From Escherichia coli (GTDB taxonomy: Bacteria; Pseudomonadota; Gammaproteobacteria; Enterobacterales; Enterobacteriaceae): a stretch of DNA of 64,000 bases. Numbering within the stretch: position 1 is the first letter of the stretch; every line of letters starts with the position of its first letter. Below, one piece after another: positions 11,651 through 28,989 of this stretch. A program made the translations under genes and the position numbers. The stretch lies in NCBI RefSeq assembly GCF_030013595.1, contig NZ_CP122768.1, one strand, 5' to 3'. The notes beneath the pieces were generated by a model. That model was given only the letters and a program-made list of their open reading frames with translations. It had not been told where the DNA came from and searched no databases.

Positions 11651-13219
11651 TTAGCGTGCCGGCTGAGTAGTCGTGGAAGACTGCTCAAAGTGATAGCGAC
11701 CGGTTTTCAGGCTGCTTGGGCCGAGGCGTGCAAACTTGAACATTAAGAACAATTCTGCCACCAGGAACAGGGTATACAGGCCGCAAATCAGCACCATTGA
11801 GAAGATGAGATCGCCTGCGGTCAGTGACGAGTTCGCCACAGCTGTCGGCAGCACTTCACCGATAGCCCACGGTTGGCGGCCATATTCAGCCACAAACCAG
11901 CCCGCTTCTACAGCAATCCACGGCAGCGGAATACCGTACAGCGCGGCGCGCAGCAGCCATTTTTTCTCGCCAATGCGGTTGCGGATGACACTCCAGAAAG
12001 AGAGCGCGATGATTGCCAGCAGCAGGAAGCCACACGCCACCATGATACGGAACGCGAAGTACAGCGGCGCTACACGCGGAATGGAGTCTTTGGTTGCCTG
12101 TTGAATCTGCGCTTCAGTCGCATCAGCCACGTTTGGCGTATAGCGTTTCAGCAGCAGACCGTAACCGAGGTCTTTCTTCATGCTATTGAACTGGTCACGA
12201 ACCGCCTGGTCGGTAGAACCAGAACGCAGTTGCTCGAGCAGAGAGTACGCCTTCATCCCGTTACGAATGCGTTCTTCATGCTGCACCATCAGTTCTTTCA
12301 GGCCGATAACTGGAGTATCCACGGAACGCGTTGCAATGATACCCAGCGCGTAAGGGATCTGGATCGCAAATTTGTTCGTCTCCTCTTCCTGATCAGGAAT
12401 GCCGAACAGAGTAAAGGCAGCAGGCGCAGGTTGCGTTTCCCACTCGGCTTCAATAGCAGCCAGTTTGGTTTTCTGCACGTCGCCCATTTCGTAACCAGAT
12501 TCATCACCCAGAACAATAACAGACAGAACGGCAGCCATACCGAAGCTGGCAGCGATAGCAAAGGAGCGTTTAGCGAAGGCGAAGTCACGACCTTTCAGCA
12601 TATACCATGCGCTGATACCGAGGATGAACATCGCGCCAGTCACATAACCAGACGCTACAGTGTGAACGAATTTCACCTGAGCAACCGGGTTAAGCACCAG
12701 CTCGGAGAAGCTCACCATCTCCATACGCATAGTTTCAAAGTTGAAATCAGACGCGATTGGGTTTTGCATCCAGCCGTTCGCAACCAGAATCCACAGTGCG
12801 GACAGGTTTGAACCGAGCGCCACCAGCCAGGTGACACACATATGCTGAACTTTACCCAGACGATCCCAACCGAAGAAGAACAGACCTACAAAGGTGGATT
12901 CGAGGAAGAAGGCCATTAGACCTTCGATTGCCAGCGGCGCACCGAAGATATCCCCTACATAGTGGGAATAGTAAGACCAGTTAGTCCCGAACTGGAACTC
13001 CATGGTCAGACCGGTAGCCACACCCAGAGCGAAGTTGATACCAAACAACTTGCCCCAGAACTTGGTCATATCTTTATAAATCTGTTTGCCGGAAAGGACG
13101 TAGACCGTTTCCATAATGGCCAGCAGGAACGCCATACCGAGCGTCAGTGGCACAAAAAGGAAGTGGTACATCGCGGTCAAGGCAAACTGTAAGCGCGACA
13201 GTTCGACTATATCTAACAT
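11651..13219 (-). CDS. cydA: cytochrome bd-I ubiquinol oxidase subunit I
   Basis: 522 aa from the second Met ([12 protein letters not shown]...); Q-loop region present. Confidence 0.96.
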
Positions 13220-13556
13220 CATGACTCCTTGCTCATCGCATGAAGACTCCGAGAGTGAACCCCGTTAGAAAGGGTCACACGCATGCCCCAATACAAAATT
13301 ATTTGCTCGCCTCTATCGTTGCCATTTCATCAAAAGAGGAAAAGACAATGATAAAAAAGTTACAAATATGTTAATGAATAAACCAAATTGATCCCGTAAT
13401 TATATTACGCCGCAAAATCCTTACAATAAACAGGTTTTTATTGAGCAAATTTGCATTTTTCGACAGTGATCAATTTATAGCGAAATTGTCACGATCTCAC
13501 CAATTTGATCTACGACAATTTATCGTGTTTTGCAGATTTTTTTCAAGAATTAAAAA

Positions 13557-13570
13557 TTGATTTATATCAA
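13557..13570. promoter_or_regulatory. FNR-consensus palindrome TTGAT-N4-ATCAA in the cydA upstream region
   Basis: perfect match to the FNR half-site palindrome about 340 bp upstream of the cydA start; cydAB is known to be FNR/ArcA regulated. Confidence 0.55.
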
Positions 13571-14024
13571 AATCAACCAAATATGTTAATTATGTATAAA
13601 CCATAGATCATTGGTAATTTTATTGTTAATTTATTGTGAAATATTTATGCAACACAATTATTACAATGAAAAAGTATAGATAAAAAACCAGTGTTTTATT
13701 TAACAGAACCGCCCTATCCACTTTTTATAATACCAATTGATTAGAGTAGCCAATTTGTTGCTATTTTACATAACATATTTTTATCAAAGTTAATTGATTG
13801 TTGCCTTTATGAGCACCGGCCGTAAGCCCGTTATGTTATTGTTTCATTAGTAATAATCACTTAAATGTATCGATGAAACAGGTATGACTTAGCGGGAGTG
13901 ATTGTTTCTGAGTGAACAGAGACCACTTTCGCCTGATAAATGAAAAATGAGCGATTTTTGCAAGTTAGTTTTTCTATAGCCGAGTACGCTCAGCGCCTCG
14001 CTTGATTACAATGAGGTTGCTGCT

Positions 14025-14969
14025 ATGAGTCCTGATAATATCAGTTCTGCTGTCAATCGCTTCTCAGGTTGGCCATCTAATGATCCTCTAAAAACAGATA
14101 AAGAATCAATGACATCACCCATGACTGTGCAGGTAATAAAGATGATTGCCGCCATCCTTGACCCACATCGGATAGTCGTTGGAATCGATACACTTTATAC
14201 AACGCAGCGCGAAACATTTACCTCAGAGAGTCAACAGCTCATTGAATCAGCATTGCAAACACTTCATGTGATGAATTTAAATAACCTGGAAACAAATCTC
14301 GATGAGGAAGGTCACTATCTGGCTTTTGGATATAACGTTGACACTCCTGACAGAATAACCGTTTCTGCTTATAATGAAAAAAAGCCTGGCTGCTATGGCC
14401 AATGTCTTTTAATACAGGATGACGAAACAGACTTATTTAACCTGATAAAAGTTAAAATTTTTGAAGCCAGGCATAATTATGTCGCTCAATTGATGAGCGA
14501 TCCGGAATTTATGTTCAAATTTAGTTATAGCGCTCAACAAAATAGATTAGAACCTCATCTTCTGGTTCCCACTTATTTCCCTCTAAAAACAAACGAACCG
14601 GTTACGCAAGAGGATGTACTGTTACTTTATCGTTTCTTTAAAATGGATGGTGATTTTAATATATTAACATCAGATGAATACATGAGTATCATGACACCTC
14701 TAATGAAGTGTGAGCGTAGCATCCACGACCACAACAGGTATGTGACGGGCAAAGATCCCCTTCTTCTGGACTATCCTCCTTCTGGTAACCAGATATATTT
14801 CCATATTTTTCCTGACGAATCAGCAACACTAGTCCTTTATTTTTCAAACAATGACATTGAATGTTTCGTCTTTGAAAGAGATATTCCGAGCCAGTATCGC
14901 TTTTTCAAAATGTTTACCAATCTGGCACTGGTTATTGATCAGTTAACCGATGCCAATCAAATACTTTAA
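14025..14969 (+). CDS. hypothetical protein, 314 aa, low GC, no recognisable domain
   Basis: clean ORF with a GAGG Shine-Dalgarno 8 nt upstream; polar Ser/Pro-rich N-terminus; no signal peptide or TM segment; AT-rich codon usage unlike flanking core genes. Confidence 0.7.
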   Translation: MSPDNISSAVNRFSGWPSNDPLKTDKESMTSPMTVQVIKMIAAILDPHRIVVGIDTLYTTQRETFTSESQQLIESALQTLHVMNLNNLETNLDEEGHYLAFGYNVDTPDRITVSAYNEKKPGCYGQCLLIQDDETDLFNLIKVKIFEARHNYVAQLMSDPEFMFKFSYSAQQNRLEPHLLVPTYFPLKTNEPVTQEDVLLLYRFFKMDGDFNILTSDEYMSIMTPLMKCERSIHDHNRYVTGKDPLLLDYPPSGNQIYFHIFPDESATLVLYFSNNDIECFVFERDIPSQYRFFKMFTNLALVIDQLTDANQIL

Positions 14970-15049
14970 TTTTTATATATTCCCTGTGGCAAATATTGCT
15001 AAACAATGCCCGGGGATTAATTTTTATTACTCACGGAAAGATTTAAATA

Positions 15050-15472
15050 ATGATCCCATCTCAAATCTCTTTCAACACCCTTCCTGTCAATGCAACATAC
15101 GCTTCAGAGACAACAGTTGACACACAAAAATTCTCTGACATCCTCTACTCAGCGGGGTGTTCCCTAAAGGATCTGGCTTATCTGAGCAGATGTCTGGCAT
15201 CAATACATCCGACTATCGCCAAAAACATTTATGAAACAGAAAATCTCAGCGATCAAAAATTACTACATATTGATTGCCGTAGTACAAATGAAATCAAGAT
15301 AAATATCTTTTTTGGTCAACAACGAGAAGGATTAATTGAAATTAGTTCTGACACAGTCATTTTTTCGATACTGTCTTCATTGATTGACTCCACCATTTCT
15401 AAATTTCAACACCAAAACCCCGTTAACGGTTCTGTAAATCCTGACCTATTGTATGAGGATTATACTGATTAA
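15050..15472 (+). CDS. hypothetical small acidic protein, 140 aa, low GC
   Basis: ORF 80 bp downstream of the 314-aa gene on the same strand; acidic composition, no TM; no family recognised. Confidence 0.6.
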   Translation: MIPSQISFNTLPVNATYASETTVDTQKFSDILYSAGCSLKDLAYLSRCLASIHPTIAKNIYETENLSDQKLLHIDCRSTNEIKINIFFGQQREGLIEISSDTVIFSILSSLIDSTISKFQHQNPVNGSVNPDLLYEDYTD

Positions 15473-16019
15473 ATCCCTCCTGTCGCGAAAAATGGCCTGC
15501 GTTATTGCCAGACGTAATAAAACTTTTGATTAACGTTTCTCGTACTGGTAGCACCTTCATGTACTTTTCTTTTTTACGAAAAATCAAAAGAGCTAACAAA
15601 GGTCATAATTCGCATGAATCATTAATTATTTGTTATTTTCAACATTATTTTTACATTAAGCAGAGATGAATTGCAGTGAAATTCGACTTAATTTTTATGA
15701 AATGCATTTACTCATGGCTAAAGCCACGTCACAAAAATGCAAATTAGAAGTTGATCACAATTATCTCAATACATCAAATCAAGTTAATTTTAAAAATTTA
15801 ACATTCATGACACTAGTTGACATAACACACTGAATTAAAATGAGAATTTGGAAACACACTTTAAACAATCATTTCCCGAAAGACATTTTGAAAATAGATC
15901 AATTGCAACATTACGGTCAGATAAAGACACTCCTGTGATATTAAACCTGTGCCGTTATGAACGGCCATAAATACGACGTGTGTAACTTATTTTACTCTCT
16001 GTCTTACAAAGGATTACCC

Positions 16020-16469
16020 ATGAAGAAAGCAACACTTGTGATTGGCGTTATTGGCGCGGACTGCCATGCAGTAGGCAATAAAGTTCTGGACCGCGTTTTT
16101 AGCAACCATGGCTTCAGAGTCATTAATCTGGGCGTAATGGTCAGCCAGGACGAATATATTGATGCTGCCATTGAAACTGGCGCTGACGCGATTGTCGTCT
16201 CCTCTATCTATGGGCATGGCGATATCGACTGTCTGGGCATGCGCGAACGCTGCATCGAGCGTGGACTGGGTGACATCCTGCTCTATGTGGGCGGTAACCT
16301 GGTGGTCGGAAAACATGACTTCGCTGACGTGGAAACCAAATTTAAAGAGATGGGATTTGATCGCGTCTTTGCCCCAAGTCATGACTTAGAAGATGTTTGT
16401 CAGCTGATGGCCCACGATATCAACCAACGTCATGACGTTGATACTCGCATTCTTGAAGAGGCAATCTGA
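16020..16469 (+). CDS. glmS: glutamate mutase sigma (S) subunit, cobalamin-binding
   Basis: start placed at [21 protein letters not shown] after an AAGGA Shine-Dalgarno; the D-x-H-x-x-G B12-binding motif (DCHAVG) is present; similar to clostridial MutS/GlmS. Confidence 0.9.
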
Positions 16470-17857
16470 TGCAAATCGTCTCTGTCGATATTGGATCGAC
16501 GTGGACCAAAGCAGCCCTCTTCGCCCGGGAGGGGGACGCGTTAACGTTGGTTAACCACGTACTGACCCCAACCACCACCCATCATCTGGCGAAGGGGTTT
16601 TTCTCCAGCCTGAACCTGGTGTTAAACGTAGATAATGCCCTCCCCCTGTTTAACAGCGGTGAGGTTACATTGAAGTATTCCTCCTCTGCCAAAGGTGGGC
16701 TGGCGGTTGCCGCAATGGGATTGGTGCCTTCTATCACCCTGGAAACCGCGAAAGTAACCGCTCACTCTGCGGGGGCTAAAATTGCGCAATATTACTCCTA
16801 CAAGCTGAACCGCCGTGATATCCAGGCACTGGAAGAAACGCAGCCCGATATTCTCTTGTTCACCGGCGGCACCGACGGCGGAGAAGAAAGCTACGGCCTG
16901 AATAACGCCCGTGTGCTGGCAGAATCCAAACTCGACTGCGCCATTATTTATGCCGGAAACCGGGATATTCAGGACGAAGTGCAGGAGATCCTAGGGCATA
17001 AAGACCTGACCATCGTCGACAACGTTCTGCCCGATCTTGACCATCCGAACCCTTTAGCCGCACGCCAGGCTATCTGCGACATATTCCTTAAACGCATCGT
17101 TAAAGGGAAAGGGCTGGATGTCGTTGTTGATAAAACAGGCGAAGAACCAATGCCGACACCATGGACGGTCTTTGAACTGGTTAAGGCAATCAGTAACGTC
17201 GATCACAGCTGGAAAGAGTTCATGCTGATCGACATGGGCGGCGCAACCACCGATGTCTATTCCGCCTGTGCCAACACGCTCTCGCCCGACACCGTTTTAC
17301 ACGGCGTACCGGAACCCTTCGTGAAACGGACGGTGGAAGGCGATCTGGGAATGCGCGTCTCGGCAATGGTGGTTGGTGAAAGTGCGAAAGAGTTAGTCAA
17401 TGTGAATTTTGCTCAGCAACCCGCACAGCTGGACGCTTTTTATCATTACCTCCGTCATCTAGTCGCTCATCCCGACTACTTACCCGCGAATGCAGAAGAA
17501 AAATATTTCGATACCGTCCTGGCCGGACTGTGTGTGGGTTATGCCACCGAAAGACATGCGGGCACCAAAAAAGAGGTCTGCACCTGCGTCGGCAATGTCG
17601 ATTTACAGATGGGACGTGACCTGACAACCGTGCGTAAAGTCGTCGGATCCGGCGGATGGCTCTCGCGTGCCAGTCAGTTCGATATGCATCACTGGTTGAA
17701 ATACCGCGAGTTAAACGACGACGGTAAACGCATTCTCTTACCGACCGAATTTGAATATTACCGCGATTCCCGGGGGCTATTACCACTGCTGGCAAACGTC
17801 GCCAGAGTCGATCCTCTGGCCGCCGCGCGCACCAGTATTCAATGCTTAACCCTATAA
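16469..17857 (+). CDS. glmL: glutamate mutase-associated protein L (MutL/GlmL, putative reactivase)
   Basis: 462-aa ORF between the S and E subunit genes, as in clostridial glutamate mutase operons. Confidence 0.85.
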   Translation: MQIVSVDIGSTWTKAALFAREGDALTLVNHVLTPTTTHHLAKGFFSSLNLVLNVDNALPLFNSGEVTLKYSSSAKGGLAVAAMGLVPSITLETAKVTAHSAGAKIAQYYSYKLNRRDIQALEETQPDILLFTGGTDGGEESYGLNNARVLAESKLDCAIIYAGNRDIQDEVQEILGHKDLTIVDNVLPDLDHPNPLAARQAICDIFLKRIVKGKGLDVVVDKTGEEPMPTPWTVFELVKAISNVDHSWKEFMLIDMGGATTDVYSACANTLSPDTVLHGVPEPFVKRTVEGDLGMRVSAMVVGESAKELVNVNFAQQPAQLDAFYHYLRHLVAHPDYLPANAEEKYFDTVLAGLCVGYATERHAGTKKEVCTCVGNVDLQMGRDLTTVRKVVGSGGWLSRASQFDMHHWLKYRELNDDGKRILLPTEFEYYRDSRGLLPLLANVARVDPLAAARTSIQCLTL

Positions 17858-17875
17858 CAATTAAGGCTGCAATCA

Positions 17876-19321
17876 ATGGAACTTCGAAATAAGAAATTAA
17901 CCCATGACGAATTCATGACCGAGCGGCAACAGGTACTGAAAACCTGGGAAACCGGCAAGGATGTTGAAAACTTTGAAGATGGCGTTAAATACCAACAAAC
18001 CATTCCTGAGCATAAACGCTTCTCTCTTGCGCTGTTGAAAGCAGACAAGGAAGGTAAAACCCTTAGCCAACCGCGCGCAGGTGTGGCGCTGATGGACGAA
18101 CACATCGAACTACTGAAAACACTACAAGAAGAGTGCGATCTGCTGCCGAGCACTATCGATGCATATACCCGTCTGAATCGGTACGAAGAAGCGGCTGTAG
18201 GGATTAAAAAATCCATCGAAGCCGGAACCTCTAAACTGAACGGTTTGCCGGTAGTTAACCATGGCGTCGCAGCTTGCCGTCGCCTCACCGAAACCCTGCA
18301 AAAACCGCTACAGATCCGCCACGGCACGCCAGATGCGCGTCTGCTGGCTGAAATCTCAATGGCCAGCGGCTTTACCAGTTATGAAGGCGGTGGCATTTCC
18401 TACAACATTCCGTATGCCAAACGCGTAACGCTGGAAAAATCGATCCGCGACTGGCAGTACTGCGACCGTTTAATGGGGATGTATGAAGAACACGGGATCC
18501 GCATCAACCGCGAACCGTTTGGCCCACTAACGGGTACGCTGATCCCGCCGTTTATCTCGCACTCTATCGCGATAATCGAAGGCTTGCTGGCGCTGGAACA
18601 GGGTGTGAAATCTATCACCGTTGGTTATGGACAGGTCGGCAGCCTGACGCAGGATGTTGCGGCGATCCAGTCTCTGCGTGAACTTGCACACGAATATTTT
18701 CAGAGCTATGGCTATACCGACTATGAATTAAGTACCGTGTTTCACCAGTGGATGGGCGGCTTTCCGGAAGACGAATCGAAAGCGTTCGCTATTATCTCCT
18801 GGGGCGCAGCCGTCGCGGGGATGTCTGGTGCCACCAAAGTCATCACCAAAAGTCCGCACGAAGCCTGGGGCATCCCGACTGCCGCTGCCAACATTCAGGG
18901 GCTGAAAGCCTCCCGCCAGATGCTCAACATGGTCAACGAGCAGAAATTCCCGCCGTGCCCTGCGGTTGAACTGGAAATTGAACTGATTAAGAGCGAGGTT
19001 CGCGCGGTACTGAATAAAGTGTTCGAACTGGGTAATGGTGATATTGCGCGCGGTACGGTGCTGGCATTTGAAGCGGGCGTACTGGATGTGCCGTTTGCGC
19101 CAGCCGCCTGCAACGCGGGCAAAATTCTTCCGGTCCGTGACAACACCGGCGCGATACGCGTACTGGAAGCCGGAGCCGTTCCATTGCCAAAAGATATTCT
19201 CGACCTCCACCACGATTACGTTGCTGAACGCGCACGCTTTGAAGGACGCCAACCGACATTCCAGATGGTTGTAGATGACATCAATGCTGTATCCCACAGT
19301 AAATTAATAGGAAGACCATAA
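17876..19321 (+). CDS. glmE: glutamate mutase epsilon (E) subunit
   Basis: 481 aa with strong collinear similarity to clostridial GlmE (e.g. PRAGVALxDEHIELL, REPFGPLTGTL, VFHQWMGGFP). Confidence 0.92.
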   Translation: MELRNKKLTHDEFMTERQQVLKTWETGKDVENFEDGVKYQQTIPEHKRFSLALLKADKEGKTLSQPRAGVALMDEHIELLKTLQEECDLLPSTIDAYTRLNRYEEAAVGIKKSIEAGTSKLNGLPVVNHGVAACRRLTETLQKPLQIRHGTPDARLLAEISMASGFTSYEGGGISYNIPYAKRVTLEKSIRDWQYCDRLMGMYEEHGIRINREPFGPLTGTLIPPFISHSIAIIEGLLALEQGVKSITVGYGQVGSLTQDVAAIQSLRELAHEYFQSYGYTDYELSTVFHQWMGGFPEDESKAFAIISWGAAVAGMSGATKVITKSPHEAWGIPTAAANIQGLKASRQMLNMVNEQKFPPCPAVELEIELIKSEVRAVLNKVFELGNGDIARGTVLAFEAGVLDVPFAPAACNAGKILPVRDNTGAIRVLEAGAVPLPKDILDLHHDYVAERARFEGRQPTFQMVVDDINAVSHSKLIGRP

Positions 19322-20562
19322 TGAAAATAAAACAGGCTCTGTTCACCGCTGGCTACTCCTCATTCTATTTCGATGACCAGCAGGCGATAAAAAACGGAGC
19401 GGGTCATGACGGCTTTTTTTATACCGGGGAGCCAGTAACACAGGGGTTTAACGCCGTACGTCAGGCCGGGGAGTGCGTATCGGTACAGTTGATTCTGGAA
19501 AACGGCGCGGTCGCCGTAGGTGACTGTGCTGCCGTACAGTATTCCGGGGCAGGTGGTCGCGATCCACTGTTCCTCGCAGAGCACTTTATTCCGTTCCTCA
19601 ACGACCATATCAAGCCATTACTGGTAGGCCGCGATGTGGATGCTTTCCTGCCGAATGCCCGTTTCTTCGACAAATTGCGTATTGACGGCAACTTGCTACA
19701 TACCGCCGTGCGCTACGGATTATCACAGGCGCTGCTTGATGCTACCGCGCTGGCAACCGGCCGTCTGAAAACTGAAGTAGTTTGCGATGAATGGCAGTTG
19801 CCACGCGTGGCGGAATCCATTCCATTATTTGGTCAGAGCGGTGACGATCGATATATCGCCGTCGATAAGATGATCCTTAAGGGCATCGACGTGCTGCCCC
19901 ATGCACTGATTAATAACGTCGAAGAGAAACTAGGCTTTAAAGGTGAAAAACTGCGCGAATATGTCCGCTGGCTGTCGGATCGTATTCTGAGCAAGCGCAC
20001 CAGCGCACGCTACCACCCTACCCTGCACATCGATGTATACGGCACTATCGGTCTGATCTTCGATATGGATCCGCTTCGCTGTGCGCAATACATCGCCAGC
20101 CTGGAAAAAGAAGCGCAAGGCCTGCCGCTCTACATTGAAGGGCCGGTCGATGCCGGTAACAAGCCCGATCAAATTCGCCTGCTGACCGCGATTACCAAAG
20201 AGCTGACGCGCCTCGGTTCCGGCGTGAAAATTGTGGCCGATGAATGGTGTAACACCTACCAGGATATTGTTGATTTTACTGATGCCGCCAGTTGCCACAT
20301 GGTGCAAATCAAAACCCCGGATCTGGGCAGTATTCACAACATCGTCGATGCGGTTCTTTACTGCAACAGCCACAGCATGGAAGCGTACCAGGGCGGCACC
20401 TGCAATGAAACTGATGTCAGTGCCTGCACCTGTGTCCACGTCGCCCTTGCCGCTCGCCCTATGCGTATGCTGGTAAAGCCAGGGATGGGCTTTGACGAAG
20501 GCCTCGATATCGTCTTCAACGAAATGAATCGTACTATCGCGCTGTTGCAGGCTAAGGATTAA
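19321..20562 (+). CDS. mal: 3-methylaspartate ammonia-lyase (beta-methylaspartase)
   Basis: 413 aa; enolase-superfamily MAL motifs (AVQYSGAGGRDPLF, HMVQIKTPDLG, KPGMG); overlaps glmE stop (TAATG). Confidence 0.93.
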   Translation: MKIKQALFTAGYSSFYFDDQQAIKNGAGHDGFFYTGEPVTQGFNAVRQAGECVSVQLILENGAVAVGDCAAVQYSGAGGRDPLFLAEHFIPFLNDHIKPLLVGRDVDAFLPNARFFDKLRIDGNLLHTAVRYGLSQALLDATALATGRLKTEVVCDEWQLPRVAESIPLFGQSGDDRYIAVDKMILKGIDVLPHALINNVEEKLGFKGEKLREYVRWLSDRILSKRTSARYHPTLHIDVYGTIGLIFDMDPLRCAQYIASLEKEAQGLPLYIEGPVDAGNKPDQIRLLTAITKELTRLGSGVKIVADEWCNTYQDIVDFTDAASCHMVQIKTPDLGSIHNIVDAVLYCNSHSMEAYQGGTCNETDVSACTCVHVALAARPMRMLVKPGMGFDEGLDIVFNEMNRTIALLQAKD

Positions 20563-20565
20563 CAA

Positions 20566-21936
20566 ATGGCTCGTTCTTTTAAAGTCTTATCGCCAACGGC
20601 AATCCTCGGGTATGGATTCCCGGAAGAGAGCTTCCGTAAAGCGATGGCAGAATCGCCCGATCTGATCGCCGTTGATGCAGGCTCTTCCGATCCTGGCCCC
20701 CACTACCTCGGGGCGGGCAAACCGTTTACCGATCGCGCAGGGGTCAAGCGCGATCTGCGCTATATGATCACCGCAGGCGTGCAAAATAATATACCGGTGG
20801 TGATCGGAACGGCTGGCGGTTCTGGTGCCGCACCACACCTGGAGTGGTGCCGAGAAATAATTCATGAGATTGCCCGGGAAGAGCACCTCTCGTTCTCGAT
20901 GGCGTTGATCCCGGCAGACGTTGACAAAGCCATCGTCCACCAGGCGCTGGATAACGGCAAAATCACGGCGCTGGATTTTGTCCCGCCGTTAACCCACGAC
21001 GCGATTGACGAAAGTACGTATATCGTCGCGCAAATGGGCATCGAACCCTTCCAGCAGGCGCTGAAAGAAGGCGCGCAAGTGGTGCTGGGCGGGCGCGCTT
21101 ACGACCCGGCCTGCTTTGCTGCGCTACCGATCATGCAAGGCTTTGATGAAGGTCTGGCGCTGCATTGTGGGAAAATCCTTGAATGCGCGGCAATCGCCGC
21201 AACGCCCGGCTCAGGCTCTGACTGGGCGATGGGCATCATTGATGACAACGGCTTTACGCTGAAGACATTTAATCCGAAGCGTAAATTTACCGAAACGTCA
21301 GCGGCTGCACACACACTGTATGAGAAATCCGATCCCTACTTCCTGCCAGGACCTGGCGGCGTGTTGAACCTGAAAGACTGCACATTTAAAGCGGTCAATG
21401 ACGGCGAAGTGTACGTCAGCGGTTCTAAGCATGAAGAAACGCCGTATGCCCTGAAACTGGAAGGTGCGCGACGAGTGGGCTTCCGCTGTCTGACCATCGC
21501 AGGAACGCGCGACCCGATCATGATCGCCGGGATCGATAAAATCATCGATGAAGTCAAAACCAGCGTTTCGCGTAACCTGTCGCTCGACGATGACAGCATT
21601 CACATCAATTTCCACCTGTACGGCAAAAACGGGGTGATGGGCGACCATGAACCGATGCAAACTGCCGGGCATGAGCTGGGGATTGTCCTTGATGTAGTTG
21701 CACCGACCCAGGAAATTGCCAATAGCGTTTGCTCGCTGGTGCGCTCTACCATGCTGCACTACGGCTATGAAAACCGCATCGCTACCGCAGGCAATCTGGC
21801 GTTCCCGTTCTCCCCTTCTGATATCCAGGGCGGGCCGGTATACGAATTTTCCATATATCACCTGATTGAAGCCAACGACGCTCTGCGTTTTGATTTCCAT
21901 ATTGAACAGGTGACGCCAGAAGGAGTTCAGGCATGA
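20566..21936 (+). CDS. DUF1446 (AtuA-like) family protein, function unknown
   Basis: 456-aa soluble ORF; family assignment from remembered N-terminal pattern, not verified. Confidence 0.6.
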   Translation: MARSFKVLSPTAILGYGFPEESFRKAMAESPDLIAVDAGSSDPGPHYLGAGKPFTDRAGVKRDLRYMITAGVQNNIPVVIGTAGGSGAAPHLEWCREIIHEIAREEHLSFSMALIPADVDKAIVHQALDNGKITALDFVPPLTHDAIDESTYIVAQMGIEPFQQALKEGAQVVLGGRAYDPACFAALPIMQGFDEGLALHCGKILECAAIAATPGSGSDWAMGIIDDNGFTLKTFNPKRKFTETSAAAHTLYEKSDPYFLPGPGGVLNLKDCTFKAVNDGEVYVSGSKHEETPYALKLEGARRVGFRCLTIAGTRDPIMIAGIDKIIDEVKTSVSRNLSLDDDSIHINFHLYGKNGVMGDHEPMQTAGHELGIVLDVVAPTQEIANSVCSLVRSTMLHYGYENRIATAGNLAFPFSPSDIQGGPVYEFSIYHLIEANDALRFDFHIEQVTPEGVQA

Positions 21937-22250
21937 AACAGTCAATTGTCTCACTGGCGCAAGTCATTCGTTCGAAAAATGCCGGACCTTACGAACTGGT
22001 TTTAGATATTTTATTTAAAACCAAAGAAAACTATGAGCGTGTCAAATCATCAGGGCAATTAACCCCAGAACTGATCGCGCGCTTATATCATGTTGAACCT
22101 GACTTTATTCATCGTATTGTCTGGTTTGATCCTTCTAACGCAGTAAAAATCGTCATGCCACGAGATATTATCTCCGGGAATGTAGGTGACAATGATGTCT
22201 ATGGTGCACAGCAACATGCACCTTTATTAAATATGAGTTTCGATTTGTAA
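21933..22250 (+). CDS. DUF4387-like small protein, function unknown
   Basis: 105-aa ORF translationally coupled (ATGA overlap) to the DUF1446-like gene; remembered SKNAGP and YGAQQH motifs. Confidence 0.55.
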   Translation: MKQSIVSLAQVIRSKNAGPYELVLDILFKTKENYERVKSSGQLTPELIARLYHVEPDFIHRIVWFDPSNAVKIVMPRDIISGNVGDNDVYGAQQHAPLLNMSFDL

Positions 22251-22333
22251 AAATCCGAATACTTTTAGCCAACTGACATCCCGTCACTTATTGCAGTTCA
22301 ACACTTCAGCTATTTGTAAGGTTGTAATAGCAG

Positions 22334-22375
22334 GTAGATGCCTGAATCTCTATTCAGGCATCTACTTCTCCTGAT
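22334..22375 (+). terminator. intrinsic terminator or attenuator hairpin (14-bp perfect stem GTAGATGCCTGAAT / ATTCAGGCATCTAC)
   Basis: perfect inverted repeat with CTCT loop followed by a T-rich tract, between the DUF4387-like gene and the transporter. Confidence 0.6.
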
Positions 22376-22410
22376 TCTGATTTATCGCCGCGCACCTGAT
22401 GGAGGAAAAA

Positions 22411-23691
22411 ATGAAGAAAATAAGTTTAACCACGATGATTCTTTTGGCGCTGGTACTTGGAATGATTATCGGCGTAGTGCTCAATAACACTGCTTCACCG
22501 GAAACCGCAAAACTCTATGCGCAAGAAATATCGATATTCACGACGATTTTCTTACGACTGATAAAAATGATTATCGCTCCGTTAGTGGTCTCTACCCTGG
22601 TGGTAGGTATAGCTAAAATGGGCGATGCCAAAGCCCTTGGTCGTATTTTTTCTAAAACACTCTTTTTATTTATTTGCGCCTCATTGCTGTCAATTGCCTT
22701 AGGCTTGATAACAGTAAATTTCTTCATGCCAGGCACAGGAATTAATTTTGTTGCACACGGAGCCGAAACCACCGGAGTGGTCGCGTCAGAACCCTTTACG
22801 CTAAAAGTATTTATTTCGCATGCTTTCCCCACCAGCATTGTCGATGCCATGGCGCACAATGAAATTTTGCAAATCGTGGTGTTCTCAATTTTCCTCGGCT
22901 GTAGCCTGACGGCGATTGGCGAGAAAGCCAGCGCCATCGTTCACGCCTTAGATTCGCTGGCACATGCCATGTTAAAGCTCACTGGCTACGTCATGCTCTT
23001 CGCTCCCCTGACCGTATTCGCTGCTATTTCAGCATTGATTGCTGAACGAGGACTGGCAGTTATGGTGAGCGCCGGGATCTTTATGGGTGAATTTTATTTC
23101 ACCATGTTATTACTTTGGGTGCTGCTTATCGGTCTGGCCATCGTTTATGTTGGCCCCTGCATCAGACGCCTGACCCGCGCCCTTTCGGAACCCGCCCTGC
23201 TGGCATTTACCACATCCAGTTCTGAAGCGGCTTTTCCAGGAACGCTTGAAAAACTGGAGCAATTTGGCGTTTCCCCCAAAATTGCCAGCTTTGTCTTACC
23301 CATTGGCTACTCATTTAATCTCGTTGGATCAATGGCCTACTGCTCCTTCGCCACAGTTTTCATCGCCCAGGCCTGCAATATCCATTTATCCATCGGTGAG
23401 CAAATCACCATGCTGTTGATCCTGATGTTGACCTCGAAAGGAATGGCTGGCGTACCACGCGCCTCAATGGTGGTTATCGCCGCCACGCTCAACCAGTTCA
23501 ATATTCCGGAAGCGGGGCTGATCTTGCTGATGGGCGTTGATCCGTTCCTTGATATGGGGCGTTCCGCGACAAACGTCATGAGCAACGCAATGGGCGCTGC
23601 GATGGTGAGTCGGTGGGAAGGCGAACATTTCGGCGAGGGCTGTCGGGGTAAAGCATTAAAACCCAATGAATCGAACGTTGCTCTGCCCTGA
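22411..23691 (+). CDS. dicarboxylate/amino acid:cation symporter (DAACS family, GltP/DctA-like)
   Basis: about 426-aa polytopic membrane ORF; start chosen at MKKISL after a GGAGG Shine-Dalgarno; substrate unknown. Confidence 0.8.
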   Translation: MKKISLTTMILLALVLGMIIGVVLNNTASPETAKLYAQEISIFTTIFLRLIKMIIAPLVVSTLVVGIAKMGDAKALGRIFSKTLFLFICASLLSIALGLITVNFFMPGTGINFVAHGAETTGVVASEPFTLKVFISHAFPTSIVDAMAHNEILQIVVFSIFLGCSLTAIGEKASAIVHALDSLAHAMLKLTGYVMLFAPLTVFAAISALIAERGLAVMVSAGIFMGEFYFTMLLLWVLLIGLAIVYVGPCIRRLTRALSEPALLAFTTSSSEAAFPGTLEKLEQFGVSPKIASFVLPIGYSFNLVGSMAYCSFATVFIAQACNIHLSIGEQITMLLILMLTSKGMAGVPRASMVVIAATLNQFNIPEAGLILLMGVDPFLDMGRSATNVMSNAMGAAMVSRWEGEHFGEGCRGKALKPNESNVALP

Positions 23692-23798
23692 GGGGGATCT
23701 TAAGCAATCAGAAGCCAATGACTACGCATTTTTATAAGCCGGATCATGAAGTTAGACGGCAATTAAGTAACACTAACGTTTAAGGTGAAAAGTGAAAT

Positions 23799-25451
23799 AT
23801 GTCAAAACCATTTATCTGGCAAGAACCGTTTCTACAAAATAAAGACGGTACAGAATATACATTAATTAGCGATCAGCATATTACAGTAACGGAATTAGAC
23901 GGCGAAGAAGTGATAAAAATCGCTCCTGAAGCATTAACGCTGCTTGCCCGGCAGGCATTTTATGAAGCCTCTTTTTTCTTACGTTCCGCTCATTTGCAAC
24001 AGGTCGCCAGCATTCTTAACGATCCGCAGGCCAGTAGTAATGATAAATACGTTGCGTTGCAGTTATTACGTAATGCTGAAGTCTCAGCAAAAGGGGTATT
24101 ACCCAACTGTCAGGATACCGGCACCGCAACTATTGTTGCCAGTAAAGGGCAACAGATATGGACGGGAGGTAACGACGCTGAAGCCTTAAGCAAAGGCATT
24201 TACAGTACTTTCCAGGAAAATAATCTGCGCTTTTCACAAAATGCGCCGCTGGATATGTATACCGAAGTCAATACGCAAACCAATCTCCCGGCGCAGATTG
24301 ATATCAGCGCTGTCGCTGGTAATGAGTACCATTTTCTCTGTGTTAATAAAGGGGGCGGCTCCGCCAATAAAGCCGCACTTTATCAGGAAACCAAATCCTT
24401 ATTGCAACCAGAAAAACTGACCGCATTTTTAATCGAAAAAATGAAATCGCTGGGCACCGCTGCCTGCCCGCCTTACCACATCGCCTTTGTCGTCGGAGGG
24501 CTTTCAGCCGATCAAACCTTAAAAGTTGCCAAGCTGGCCTCAACGAAATATTACGACAATTTGCCCACCAGCGGAAACGAGCAAGGACAAGCATTCCGTG
24601 ATATTGAGCTGGAAAAAGTGTTGCTCGAGGCCAGTCAGCAATTTGGTATTGGTGCGCAATTTGGAGGTAAATATTTCGCTCATGATATTCGCGTCATTCG
24701 TCTGCCGCGTCACGGTGGCTCCTGCCCGATAGCTATGGCGCTCTCCTGTTCTGCCGATCGCAATATCAAAGCAAAAATTAACAAGCACGGTATCTGGCTG
24801 GAAAAACTCGAACACAATCCGGGGCAATATATTCCAGCCTCACTGCGGGAAGAAAATCACGCGCAACATGTACAGCTGGATCTAAACCGTCCGTTGCGTG
24901 ACGTGATGCAGGATCTCGCCAGATTACCGGTAGGTACCCGCGTGTCGTTAAGTGGTCCCATCGTAGTGGCGCGCGATATCGCCCACGCCAAAATAAAAGC
25001 GCGGCTGGATAGCGGCGAACCGATGCCGGATTACCTGAAGCATCATATTGTCTATTACGCTGGCCCGGCGAAAACACCGGAGAACATGGCCTGCGGTTCA
25101 CTAGGTCCAACCACGGGCGGTCGAATGGACGGTTATGTCGATACCTTCCAGGCTGCTGGCGGCAGTCTGGTAATGTTATCGAAAGGTAACCGCAGCCAGC
25201 AGGTCACCGATGCCTGTCACAAACATGGCGGCTTCAATCTGGGAAGTATTGGCGGTGCAGCTGCGTTACTGGCGCAAGAATATGTCAAAAGTCTGCGTTG
25301 CCTGGAATACCCGGAGCTGGGTATGGAAGCGGTGTGGATGATGGAAGTGGAAAATCTGCCCGCATTCATCCTGGTAGATGATAAAGGCAATAATTTCTTT
25401 AGTCAGTTTGAGCAGCAACACCGCTGCGCCAGTTGCCCTGCGGGACATTAA
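23799..25451 (+). CDS. fumD: class I (Fe-S) fumarate hydratase paralogue, mesaconase/fumarase FumD-type
   Basis: 550 aa, FumA/FumB-like; clustered with glutamate mutase and mal as described for FumD of E. coli O157:H7. Confidence 0.85.
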
Positions 25452-25460
25452 GGAAAATGA

Positions 25461-26063
25461 ATGGAAGCGCGAATTTCAACTGAACGGCATGTGCAGCGCC
25501 AGCAGAAATTGAAGGAACAGGTCGATACGCGCATCGCGGCGGCGATAGAGAAAAAAGGGATTTTGATTGTTTTCACCGGCAATGGCAAAGGGAAATCCAC
25601 TGCCGCGTTTGGTACTGTGACGCGCGCGGTGGGTCATGGCAAAACGGTGGGGGTTGCGCAGTACATCAAGGGGCAATGGGACAACGGCGAATACAACCTT
25701 CTCCAGCCGCTGGGGGTTGAGTTTCATATTATGGGAACCGGTTTTACCTGGGAGACACAGAACCGGCAAGCGGATATCGACGCGGCGAAAGAGGTCTGGT
25801 CGGAAAGCAAACGGATGCTGGCTGACAAGCGTTACGACTTAGTGGTGCTTGATGAGCTGACCTATATGCTGGCTTACCATTATCTGGATACCGAAGAAGT
25901 GATCGCTTCTCTGCAAAACCGCCCGGCACAACAAAGTGTCATTGTCACCGGACGCGGTTGCCACAGTCAGATATTAAAAATGGCGGATACGGTCAGCGAA
26001 ATCCGCCCCGTCAAACATGCTTTTGATAACGGCATTCAGGCCCAGCCGGGTATCGACTGGTAA
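25461..26063 (+). CDS. cob(I)alamin adenosyltransferase (BtuR/CobA paralogue)
   Basis: 200 aa with P-loop GNGKGKSTAAFG and collinear similarity to BtuR; would supply adenosylcobalamin to glutamate mutase. Confidence 0.88.
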   Translation: MEARISTERHVQRQQKLKEQVDTRIAAAIEKKGILIVFTGNGKGKSTAAFGTVTRAVGHGKTVGVAQYIKGQWDNGEYNLLQPLGVEFHIMGTGFTWETQNRQADIDAAKEVWSESKRMLADKRYDLVVLDELTYMLAYHYLDTEEVIASLQNRPAQQSVIVTGRGCHSQILKMADTVSEIRPVKHAFDNGIQAQPGIDW

Positions 26064-26066
26064 TAA

Positions 26067-26098
26067 CTGCGCCTGGCATCCCGCCAGGCGCAGGTTTT
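26067..26098. terminator. bidirectional terminator hairpin between convergent genes
   Basis: 11-bp inverted repeat CTGCGCCTGGC / GCCAGGCGCAG followed by GTTTT. Confidence 0.6.
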
Positions 26099-27002
26099 AC
26101 ATCTCCTGCGGTACAACCGATTTCGCCAGCAACCATTCACGAAATTGCTGCAAGTGCGGTGAGTCAGACTTCTCTTCCTGCCACGTCATAATAAAACGAT
26201 TACCGGTACGAATAGGCACATCACAGGGGATCACCATATCGCCACTATCCAAATCATGTTGAATAGCGAACCGTGGTAACAGCGCCACGCCGAGATTCGA
26301 GCGCACGGCGGCAATCAGCATTGAAAGCAAATCGAAACGTGGTCCGTTGTTGACCAGCGGACTGCTAACGCCAGATAAGGCAAACCACTCTTCCCAGCCA
26401 GTAATACGGGTACTTTGATGCAGAAGTGGTAACTCTGTAAGCAGTTCTGCCACTGACAGTTTTTGATCGGACATTGCAAGCAAACTGCCGCTGCATACCG
26501 GCAAAATCTCCTCATAAAAGAGATATTCTACTTCCGCCCAGGGCGCGCAAAAATTTTCGCGCATAATGACAGCATCGTACTCCCGATTAAGAAAATCGCC
26601 GTTATTAGCTAAAGAGTGAATATTAACAATAATATCGGGATGTAACTTTGTGAATTCATGTAAATTTGGGATTAACCAGTGAGTACTAAACGTAGGATTA
26701 ACGGCAAGTTCAATAACCTGAACCGTAGGCTGCCAGGTCATAATGGTATTGGTATCGCGTTCCAGCTTATTTAATGTTTCTTTTACTATCCCCAGGTAAT
26801 ACTTCCCTGCATCATTAAGAAAAATGCGTTTTTTAGAGTGTGAAAATAACGGAGTATGTAAAAATTCCTCCAGCGCACTTACTTGTCTGAATACAGCACT
26901 TTGGGTTAACGCTAACTCCTCTGCCGCTCTGGTATAGCTTTCATGACGTGCGACGACCTCAAAAGTCACCAGCTGCTCCGTTTTAGGTATTTTTCCTCGC
27001 AT
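26097..27002 (-). CDS. LysR-family transcriptional regulator
   Basis: N-terminal HTH (TFEVVARHESYTRAAEELALTQSAVFRQVSALEE) and LysR substrate-binding domain; start chosen at MRGKIP; divergent from the RtcB-like gene. Confidence 0.85.
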   Translation of the reverse strand: MRGKIPKTEQLVTFEVVARHESYTRAAEELALTQSAVFRQVSALEEFLHTPLFSHSKKRIFLNDAGKYYLGIVKETLNKLERDTNTIMTWQPTVQVIELAVNPTFSTHWLIPNLHEFTKLHPDIIVNIHSLANNGDFLNREYDAVIMRENFCAPWAEVEYLFYEEILPVCSGSLLAMSDQKLSVAELLTELPLLHQSTRITGWEEWFALSGVSSPLVNNGPRFDLLSMLIAAVRSNLGVALLPRFAIQHDLDSGDMVIPCDVPIRTGNRFIMTWQEEKSDSPHLQQFREWLLAKSVVPQEM

Positions 27003-27591
27003 AATGCCGTCCGTGAAAAAATAACAATTCAAAAATTATTTTATAAAAAACAGTAGCACTAATGAATATCATAATTCAAATAAACAAACCAGTCAGCTAT
27101 ATGTCTAACCAGGAAAATAAAGTGACAATAATCCTAAAACAGGAATTTCACCTCAGTTATCCGCATGCAATACTTTAAAGCTATTATTGCAAGAATATTA
27201 TTCATATACATGAATATACTCTAAATAAGTCAAGTTGCAGGAAGGGAACAAATAATGAATTTCCAGAAGCTTACATAAGTAAGTGACCTGGGTGAGCGAA
27301 CATCGATGCAGCACATGCAACTTGAATTATGACAAGTATACAATGATAAATTTATATACCCTATGTTATATATTATCTATGTCCGGTTAAATTGAATGAG
27401 TCATGGCCTTAAAAGACTTCACAAAAGATAATTCCTCTTTAACAATAAGCCAGATTTACCACTTGTAAAACTTGCTATCGCCACATACACTACGCGCGTT
27501 TTCTTTCCCTTTTGCTGGCTGCTGACCGGAAAGACAAAATTACCCTCGCAATACAGGGGGTTGTTTAACGTCTATATTTCAGGACAGCGTT

Positions 27592-28989
27592 ATGCATCAT
27601 CTTTCAAGGCTTGATAAAGCCTTTCTGCGCAAAGGGATCCAACTTTCCCGCGCCAACAATATTGTTTCATTATCTCGTCCATCAGGTGCCAGTGCCCGCG
27701 TACTGCTGCCGGACGAACTGCCGCTGGAAGAAAAAGCAGTAACACAACTGCTTGATTTTGCAGAAGTGAAGCTACCAGACCACCCAGGTTATGTGCGCCA
27801 GACGTGCGCGACGCCAGATTTTCATCCCGGCAATGGAGTCCCCGTTGGCGCGGTGGTGGCCTCAACGCCGGATTTAGTCATTCCCGCCGCCATCGGCACC
27901 GATATTTCTTGTGGCATGCGGCTGCTGACGACCGGATTAACACTTGAGCAAGCCGAAGCGCATAAAGACGTCATCGCTCAGCGGTTAACGCAAGTGCTAC
28001 TGCAAAATGAGCGCGATGTTCCGTTATCCGCACAGGCGTTCACCGCGCTTTTTGATGGCGGACCGGCAGATTGCGTGTCGACCTTGCCATCAGCAGGTCT
28101 CTGGACACGCACGAATATCCCCCGAATGGTACAAGAGATTGACCGCTGCATTGGGCTTAACGAGCATAACAGTCATTCGCGTTATGCCCCACCCGCCCTG
28201 CTGGCAACGGACCGCGCATTACTCCGCGATCCTTGTCTGGGTACGCCGGGTTCAGGTAATCATTTTATTGAACTTCAGGTCGTTGATAGCGTGGTTGATC
28301 GCCATGTAGCCTGGCAACAAGGGCTGAAAACAGGCGATATTGTGGTGATGATCCACAGTGGATCGCGAGATGTTGGCTTTTACGTCGGAAGACGCTGGAT
28401 GGATCGCGCCCGTGCTGAATGGCCCACCGGACATAAACATCCACAAAGCGGGTTATATGGTCTGGCAGGCGGACTGGCGGAGGAATATCTACAAGCGATA
28501 GGAATGGCGGCGCGTTACGCGTGGTTAAATCGCGTCACAATTGCCGAAATGGTGCGCGTATGTCTCGCCAATCTCTTTCATCAGGACAATTCGCATCTGG
28601 TGGTGGATGTGCCGCATAACATCATCCTTCGCGAGCATGAAATGAATATTCATCGCAAAGGTGCAACACCGGCACGAGTGGGCGATCTGGCATTAATCCC
28701 CGGTTCAATGGGCGATTATTCGTGGCTTGCAGTCGGTTGCGGCAACCCGGAGTGGCTGTGGTCATGCAGTCACGGAGCAGGACGCAGCCAGCGTCGACAG
28801 GCCATGCGCTCAAGCGCGACTGAAGAGTCAACGCTGCCGTGGCAATGCGTCACATTGCGTGAAGAACGACGTCTTGAAGAAGCGCCAGCGGCTTATAAAG
28901 ATATTGGTCCGGTTATCGAAGCCCAACAAGAAGCCGGATTAATTCAGCCAGCGGTCAGATTTCGACCGTGGTTAACGTTTAAGGCATAA
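27592..28989 (+). CDS. RtcB-family RNA 3'-phosphate ligase paralogue with N-terminal extension
   Basis: 465 aa; RtcB motifs PDFHPGNG, IPAAIGTDISCGM, GSGNHFIEL, MIHSGSRDVG, HN, IPGSMG, CSHGAGR, AYKDI; no rtcA/rtcR nearby. Confidence 0.85.
   Translation: MHHLSRLDKAFLRKGIQLSRANNIVSLSRPSGASARVLLPDELPLEEKAVTQLLDFAEVKLPDHPGYVRQTCATPDFHPGNGVPVGAVVASTPDLVIPAAIGTDISCGMRLLTTGLTLEQAEAHKDVIAQRLTQVLLQNERDVPLSAQAFTALFDGGPADCVSTLPSAGLWTRTNIPRMVQEIDRCIGLNEHNSHSRYAPPALLATDRALLRDPCLGTPGSGNHFIELQVVDSVVDRHVAWQQGLKTGDIVVMIHSGSRDVGFYVGRRWMDRARAEWPTGHKHPQSGLYGLAGGLAEEYLQAIGMAARYAWLNRVTIAEMVRVCLANLFHQDNSHLVVDVPHNIILREHEMNIHRKGATPARVGDLALIPGSMGDYSWLAVGCGNPEWLWSCSHGAGRSQRRQAMRSSATEESTLPWQCVTLREERRLEEAPAAYKDIGPVIEAQQEAGLIQPAVRFRPWLTFKA

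Follow-up and report, generated by a model that had tools for sequence, protein, structure and literature searches.

The vitamin B12-dependent operon of the glutamate (methylaspartate) pathway considered here lies on the E. coli chromosome, in a window of 64,000 nt to whose positions all coordinates refer, and begins with glmS (plus strand, ATG at 16020; Pfam B12-binding; RefSeq start identical). It is separated from the preceding open reading frame (ORF) by a long non-coding stretch of 547 bp (15473-16019), which is AT-rich (32.2% GC, against 52.4% in the operon), much as an earlier note on this DNA had described it, and which contains no annotated feature in 1135 RefSeq genomes. Downstream of glmS follow, in order and on the same strand, glmL, glmE, the methylaspartate ammonia-lyase gene (mal), an AtuA-like gene and a DUF4387 gene, then a dicarboxylate/amino-acid symporter gene, fumD and cobO, after which a LysR-type gene is found in convergent orientation. 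On the other side, two hypothetical genes on the plus strand (314 aa, 14025-14969; 140 aa, 15050-15472), referred to below as the orphan genes, are separated by an AT-rich region of 800 bp from cydA (11651-13222), part of the minus-strand cydABX-ybgE genes. What is new at this locus is that a cryptic operon dependent on B12 is preceded by an operator-like block with deep conservation; in kind, the region is an ordinary weak promoter with an operator upstream, in AT-rich acquired DNA.

The glmS loci of 80 species were compared by blastn and MAFFT, and one short block upstream of glmS proved to be the sole part common to the genera. A gapless alignment of 48 distinct sequences anchored on ATCAATTG, which takes in Yersinia, Hafnia, Morganella, Budvicia and Yokenella, gives the pattern ttTt..g.A.GAt.Tt.TgAaaaTA.ATCAATTGc.t-N17-.A.A.T, found in 19 genus-level lineages and confining the constrained stretch of the gap to 15872-15945. 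Among 19 genus-level representatives the box carries 1.73 bits per column, compared with 0.43 for the 17-bp spacer that follows it and 0.37-0.39 for the flanks. The operator-like block itself (15872-15902, plus strand) consists of a T-tract (15872-15875), the motif A.GA (15880-15883) and a dyad, TGA-N7-TCA (TGA at 15889-15891, TCA at 15899-15901), extended to TGA-N7-TCAATTG and lying upstream of and overlapping the predicted -35 element. Its central 19-mer, TTGAAAATAGATCAATTGC (15888-15906), shows no variation among members of the E. coli group. Nowhere else in the window does the box occur, even when up to 3 mismatches are allowed (0 matches expected by chance), and the only additional copies of TGA-N7-TCAATTG in the fetched loci are matches inside tRNA genes or coding sequence. 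The block accompanies glmS whatever its upstream neighbour, be it cydA, a tetrapyrrole methylase gene, a GntR regulator gene, pduX or the orphan genes. From this sequence pattern, it is predicted to be an activator-binding site.

Outside the cydA-linked lineages the glm operon adjoins cobalamin biosynthesis genes (cbiA-D, a tetrapyrrole methylase and a pduX-like kinase). In these cobalamin-linked loci (L086 and L090-L093, from Morganella, Buttiauxella, Lelliottia, Yersinia and Hafnia) the gap before glmS measures 519-676 bp, with 27-35% GC.

The conserved block runs into a pattern with the layout of a sigma-70 promoter. The predicted -35 hexamer, TTGCAA (15903-15908), of which TTG is invariant in all lineages, is followed at a fixed distance of 17 bp (15909-15925), not conserved in sequence, by the predicted -10 hexamer GACACT (15926-15931), in which -11A (15927) and -7T (15931) never vary and -9A varies very little. 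In the 19 genus-level representatives the six -10 positions carry 1.0, 2.0, 0.91, 1.7, 0.83 and 2.0 bits, the variants across genera being GACACT, GAAACT, CACACT, CACATT, CATATT and CATCGT. Taken together, the two hexamers agree with the consensus in 7 of their 12 positions; a consensus promoter scan with a threshold of 9/12 found no plus-strand promoter-like site in the gap, missing the GACACT promoter; a promoter of this quality should therefore depend on an activator. The pattern is thus predicted to be a weak, activator-dependent sigma-70 promoter, from which transcription would start at about 15938, making the leader about 82 nt long. The gap had been taken in the earlier note for a single leader of about 550 bp, a view that finds no support, as the comparison puts the promoter 82-120 bp upstream of glmS.

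Two repeats touch this region. Direct repeat D2, GACACTCCTG, occurs at 14340-14358 in the 314-aa gene, where it overlaps an 11/12 promoter-like match at 14347-14375, and again at 15926-15944, in the glmS -10 region. Inverted repeat I2, of 24 nt and 75% identity, pairs 13884-13907, near an insertion boundary described below, with 15863-15886, at the upstream edge of the operator. Neither was retained as meaningful, both being no more than chance would produce in 2.9 kb (by estimate, some 4 exact 10-mer pairs).

A second -10-like element, TGaTATTAA (15936-15944, with TATTAA at 15939-15944), lies at a fixed distance from the box. The sequence (C)TATTAA is kept in most of the E. coli group, in which no indels occur between the box and TATTAA; the extended -10 TG preceding it is restricted to Escherichia, and TATTAA itself does not occur in Yersinia, Hafnia, Morganella or Yokenella. 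The element could serve a second promoter, whose start at about 15951 would coincide with the first base of a hairpin discussed below, or it could be a conserved initially transcribed sequence. With either start the predicted leader measures about 70-82 nt rather than about 550 nt. It ends in a Shine-Dalgarno sequence, AAAGGA (16008-16013), placed 6 nt before the glmS ATG, and the last 25 nt or so before the ATG are kept across genera (...CTACAGAGGATTACCC-ATG). Distances from the box to the ATG reach 175-218 bp in Yersinia (loci L041-L048), Morganella (L044-L052) and Hafnia (L047), compared with about 122 in E. coli, so that leaders of about 135-180 nt are predicted in these three genera; no Rfam match was found in them.

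Two side observations concern the start of translation. An in-frame ATG at 15957, in the loop of the hairpin, would extend GlmS by 21 residues (ORF 15957-16469); it lacks a ribosome-binding site, other genera do not share it, and RefSeq places the glmS start at 16020. The ribosome-binding-site region 16005-16016 reads UACAAAGGAUUA here and UACAGAGGAUUA in other genera, and resembles, with one extra base, the CsrA binding consensus, RUACARGGAUGU. Translational repression by CsrA at the glmS ribosome-binding site is a possibility.

Control of the operon is most likely mediated by a protein, as the earlier note had preferred to a riboswitch, given that the weak promoter is overlapped by an operator-like block of such deep conservation. 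Which protein might bind there was approached through the form of the dyad. In full it reads TTGAA-N5-ATCAA, that is TGA-N7-TCA, one base longer than the TGA-N6-TCA core recognised by FNR and CRP, a spacing that fits neither regulator. A pattern search for FNR sites (TTGAT-N4-ATCAA) gave no match with up to 2 mismatches in 15860-16019, and the suggested control by FNR/ArcA consequently finds no support at the core. None of the known consensus sequences for CRP, ArcA, IHF, Fur, Lrp, ArgR, sigma-54, sigma-32, sigma-E and PhoB fits the block, a by-eye comparison to be taken as a lead only.

The alternative that survives best, although we regard it as unlikely, assigns the block to the LysR-type regulator of the island in which the operon lies. 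TATTAA (15939-15944) would then be the real -10, with a start at about 15951, the box (about -56) the recognition site of this regulator and AGACACTCC (15925-15933, about -26 to -18) its activation site. TATTAA is indeed the better -10 match (4/6 plus TG) and keeps its distance to the box throughout the E. coli group, TGA-N7-TCA can be read as a T-N11-A dyad, and a LysR gene is present in the relevant clusters. This gene, whose product in the island is WP_064225414.1, is GcvA/DsdC-like and invariably comes after cobO in E. coli, Klebsiella, Buttiauxella and Lelliottia; it is also present in the Yersinia cluster (see also the legend of Figure 5 in PMC4682846). Of the 19 genus-level lineages, 16 preserve the T-N11-A dyad; its form is degenerate in Morganella, Yokenella and the Hs463 metagenome bin. 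LysR-type regulators usually have their sites at -65 and -35, so that those proposed here would be about 9 bp closer to the start. TATTAA is moreover absent from Yersinia, Hafnia, Morganella and Yokenella, whereas the hexamer NANANT spaced by 17 bp is universal.

The location of the LysR gene also speaks to this alternative. In Yersinia frederiksenii (L092, 2090-5482, corresponding to window positions 23799-27002) LysR, fumD and cobO lie upstream and on the opposite strand as a unit, which hints that the module is the target of the regulator and suggests that the LysR protein primarily serves fumD-cobO, with which its gene travels. In Morganella and Hafnia no LysR, fumD or cobO gene is found within 10 kb of the operon, yet both the box and the -10 are kept; the LysR protein is therefore a candidate that the data do not require. 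The LysR control proposed in the earlier note thus stands as far as the T-N11-A dyad goes, and falls short where the box is maintained with no adjacent LysR gene. A regulator encoded elsewhere and common to Enterobacterales is at least as likely.

The part of the gap upstream of the conserved block has a different history. In alignments with E. whittamii (L004) and with Escherichia sp. E1V33 (L005), homology breaks at 13865 and restarts at 15729, and therefore 13866-15728 represents an E. coli-specific insertion. It comprises both orphan genes and, as its 3' flank, the initial 256 bp of the gap (15473-15728, plus strand). The following AT-rich spacer (15729-15860, 26% GC) is confined to the genus Escherichia, no similarity being found outside it by blastn or MAFFT. 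Among 8 E. coli-like sequences, 18-28% of sites are variable in 15473-15728, and overall 23% in 15473-15859 compared with 4.9% in 15860-16019. Positions 15729-15859 are 0.871 identical to O157:H7, the values being 0.974 for glmS/glmL third codon positions and 0.99-1.0 for the proximal part; for E. whittamii the identity of the spacer is 0.65, against 0.79 at third codon positions. Thus, 15729-15860 evolves faster than synonymous sites, while the proximal part has changed less than third codon positions have. Strain MEI003 (L096) has 15368-15697 duplicated in tandem; these additional 330 bp make its gap 874 bp long without affecting the proximal part. The duplication covers the end of the 140-aa gene and distal gap sequence, its extra copy being annotated as a partial pseudogene in RefSeq. 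A long leader in the sense of the earlier note is hard to reconcile with this behaviour, as the distal 390 bp or so are lineage-specific, fast-evolving and tolerant of indels and of a 330-bp duplication. No phage match and no similarity to true plasmids was detected for the distal part; a mobile-element origin was set aside, the sole "plasmid" hits being E. coli records of 0.7-4.9 Mb that are most likely misfiled chromosomes.

The orphan genes are both AT-rich (37% GC) and restricted to E. coli/Shigella, and neither protein has a credible match in Pfam, NCBIfam, PHROGs or PADLOC (best, a PHROG hit with E=0.056). Escherichia sp. MOD1-EC7003 has lost part of the 140-aa gene. For the 314-aa protein, a homologue with 65% identity is encoded between cydA and sucD in a locus that carries no glm operon (L095, 6001-6945; Logan SRR11658232), and the orphan module is therefore independent of the operon. 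The cargo between cydA and sucD is mngRAB in K-12, the glm island in the window and the orphan genes alone in L095; in view of this last locus the junction looks like a hot spot with differing cargo. That glmS is co-transcribed with the two orphan genes, making the 547 nt a true long inter-cistronic leader in E. coli, is improbable on these grounds. The orphan genes do share the strand of glmS, and a scan found no terminator-like site in 15473-16019. Against this reading, they belong to an insertion found only in E. coli, degraded in MOD1-EC7003 and with a homologue of the 314-aa gene in a glm-free locus; the operon's own promoter block is kept in every genus while the distal part is not conserved; and 547 untranslated nucleotides in which C (18%) exceeds G (14%) would be a likely Rho substrate.

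A riboswitch was looked for within the gap and its orthologues. No match to the B12 box GCCACTG with up to 1 mismatch exists on either strand of 15473-16019, in agreement with the earlier note, and the covariance-model scan it had proposed returned no Rfam family, cobalamin included, at E<=10 in the window, nor any at the gathering threshold in 10 orthologous loci. A tRNA/tmRNA scan found none. Folding of the whole gap is at shuffle level (z = -0.17 and -0.14 on the two strands), and the predicted leader shows no excess structure (z = -0.14). The GC-rich hairpin GCCGTT-ATG-AACGGC (15951-15965, plus strand; -8.2 kcal/mol), already pointed out in the earlier note, lies 54 nt before the ATG and at +14 to +28 of the predicted mRNA (+1 to +15 with the second start). 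Hairpins of any composition are expected about 1.8 times, and a GC-rich perfect hairpin of 6 bp occurs in about 2% of dinucleotide shuffles of the AT-rich gap. The hairpin of the window is conserved within E. coli. Klebsiella, Salmonella arizonae and diarizonae, C. sedlakii, Citrobacter sp. Awk4, Pluralibacter and Buttiauxella have, in the corresponding position, hairpins unrelated to it in sequence; those of the C. freundii group are weak, and none is found at this offset in C. amalonaticus, Enterobacter or Lelliottia. Over 11 genera the Fisher-combined shuffle p is 0.0035, with 3 of the 11 individually below 0.05. The stem is directly followed by CATAAATACG and is not a terminator, because no U-run follows it. 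Judging by its position, it is probably a 5'-proximal stabilising stem-loop of the predicted mRNA, clearly dispensable in some lineages.

These observations leave very little room for a new riboswitch or leader-peptide attenuator sensing B12 or glutamate. Such an element would suit an operon that requires adenosylcobalamin, hairpins do recur just downstream of the promoter in several genera, and the leader is longer in Yersinia, Hafnia and Morganella. On the opposite side stand the lack of an Rfam match at permissive thresholds, fold z-scores of about 0, a leader not conserved between genera except around the ribosome-binding site, the loss of the hairpin in C. amalonaticus and Enterobacter and its missing U-run, and small ORFs that are not conserved. 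The ORF beginning ATGAATTGCAGTGAA (15666-15833, plus strand), put forward as a possible leader peptide of 26 codons, in fact has 55. It lies upstream of the predicted promoter and is judged non-coding: it is frameshifted in MFDS1019527 and MOD1-EC7003, has no ATG in E. whittamii or E1V33, has accumulated many non-synonymous changes and matches no known family. That the distal AT-rich part is an independent small RNA or small protein such as this ORF is hardly credible. Promoter-like hexamers on both strands (e.g. minus strand, 15787-15760 and 15486-15459) and ORFs of 54-58 codons do occur, but the promoter-like sites number 13 for 11.4 expected from shuffles, relatives have the ORF frameshifted or not at all, synonymous sites change more slowly than this region and none of the 1135 RefSeq genomes annotates anything there.

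The operon and its upstream DNA belong to a 15.4-kb island (13596-28983) that takes the place of mngRAB (mngR-mngA-mngB) in K-12, which lacks the island; homology to K-12 stops at 13595, 373 bp upstream of cydA, and restarts at sdhX/sucD (28984). This methylaspartate/glutamate mutase island is found in 1135 of 5426 complete E. coli genomes and, according to PMC4682846, in about 90% of O157:H7 strains. Kronen and Berg (2015) described the cluster, counted the LysR gene as a member and failed in their attempts at induction, no tested condition giving expression of the cluster genes in E. coli O157:H7 (PMC4682846). According to Kato and Asano, as cited in that paper, other enterics make the operon when oxygen is limiting. 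The only perfect FNR box, TTGATTTATATCAA, is present at 13557-13570, 335-348 bp upstream of cydA and within the K-12-homologous cydAB control region; it is the FNR box of cydA, not of glmS.

Length and AT-richness of the upstream gap recur across genera, with no sequence conserved outside the core. In Morganella, Klebsiella, Buttiauxella, Lelliottia, Yersinia and Hafnia it measures 519-1215 bp with 27-36% GC, the operons having 46-57% GC. In the window, the tract has the composition of xenogeneic DNA (26-36% GC against 51% for the whole window) and sits in an island absent from K-12. Maintenance of length and composition without sequence fits a substrate for silencing by nucleoid proteins, H-NS being the obvious candidate, and the spacer 15729-15860 may be part of such a substrate. 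On this compositional evidence, silencing by H-NS through the AT-rich tract is plausible, and it would agree with the lack of laboratory expression in O157:H7 (PMC4682846).

Taken together, we consider it probable that the 547 bp are a composite upstream region, made up of non-conserved distal DNA, a proximal operator with a weak promoter, and a short leader. The distal 390 bp or so (15473-15860) would be AT-rich filler, its first 256 bp derived from the insertion of the two orphan genes and the rest a genus-specific spacer. The operator-like block (15872-15902) would overlap the weak sigma-70 promoter (TTGCAA, 17 bp, GACACT), with transcription starting at about 15938, or possibly also at about 15951 from TGaTATTAA, and yielding a 5' untranslated region of about 70-82 nt, in which the small GC hairpin would come early and a strong ribosome-binding site would follow. 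Expression would be set at initiation, the promoter being presumably too weak alone and in need of an activator at the conserved block, and the long AT-rich upstream DNA would probably keep the operon silent via nucleoid proteins such as H-NS.

Several points weigh against this composite reading. The -10 is poor, with G or C at -12, and the same columns could therefore be a protein-binding site instead. For the E. coli group TATTAA makes a better -10 and may be the one actually used, which would place the operator at about -56. No known regulator fits the block, the spacing being wrong for FNR/CRP and the LysR gene absent near the Morganella and Hafnia operons, and what suggests H-NS binding is base composition. 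With no terminator predicted between the orphan genes and glmS, read-through across the whole 547 nt is possible. Finally, a literature search by locus tag and topic found no mapped glmS start or regulation data.

A more specific proposal, which we put forward tentatively and hold to be somewhat less likely true than false, is that TGA-N7-TCAATTG (in the E. coli group, within TTGAAAATAGATCAATTGC) is the operator of an Enterobacterales-wide regulator that activates the cryptic B12-dependent glutamate (methylaspartate) pathway, with the AT tract, whose length and composition though not sequence are kept in at least 7 genera, as a required silencer. If this were true, the element would be a direct bait both for this regulator and for the signal that induces the operon, which Kronen and Berg (2015) did not find. 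The comparison narrows the control region from 547 bp to a promoter/operator of about 75 bp, which removes the riboswitch and long-leader ideas and makes the role of the island in the gut and in disease experimentally tractable.

The arrangement can be compared with several known systems. Cobalamin riboswitch leaders (RF00174 and its adenosylcobalamin variants, as in btuB and cob) and the adenosylcobalamin-responsive control of eut share with it a B12-related operon and an untranslated upstream region; the glmS gap, however, has no B12 box, covariance-model match or excess structure, and the glm operon uses B12 as a cofactor and neither makes nor imports it. The hairpin resembles the 5'-terminal stabilising stem-loops of the ompA type in being small, stable and within the first 30 nt or so of the predicted transcript, with a position, though not a sequence, that recurs; it differs from them in that it is missing in some genera, and in that the 5' end here is a predicted one. 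LysR-regulated operons (GcvA/gcvTHP, DsdC/dsdXA, TdcA/tdcABC) have in common with this locus the T-N11-A dyad and, in the island, a GcvA/DsdC-like LysR gene; here this gene lies about 10 kb away and convergent with cobO rather than divergent from glmS, and the box is nearer to the start than the usual -65 and is kept without a LysR gene in Morganella and Hafnia. Class II-like FNR/CRP-dependent promoters of enteric catabolic operons, with a site at about -41.5, are similar in their weak hexamers and in a dyad that overlaps the -35, centred in glmS about 43 bp before the predicted start, and the production reported for other enterics at low oxygen (Kato and Asano, cited in PMC4682846) is a further likeness; the glmS dyad is one base longer, and an FNR match is lacking at the core. 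With the operons silenced by H-NS/StpA (proU, bgl, LEE1 and the cydAB control region), the locus, by its composition a candidate for such silencing, shares a horizontally acquired island, the lack of laboratory expression (PMC4682846) and about 2.7 kb of DNA with 25-40% GC beside an operon of 52% GC.

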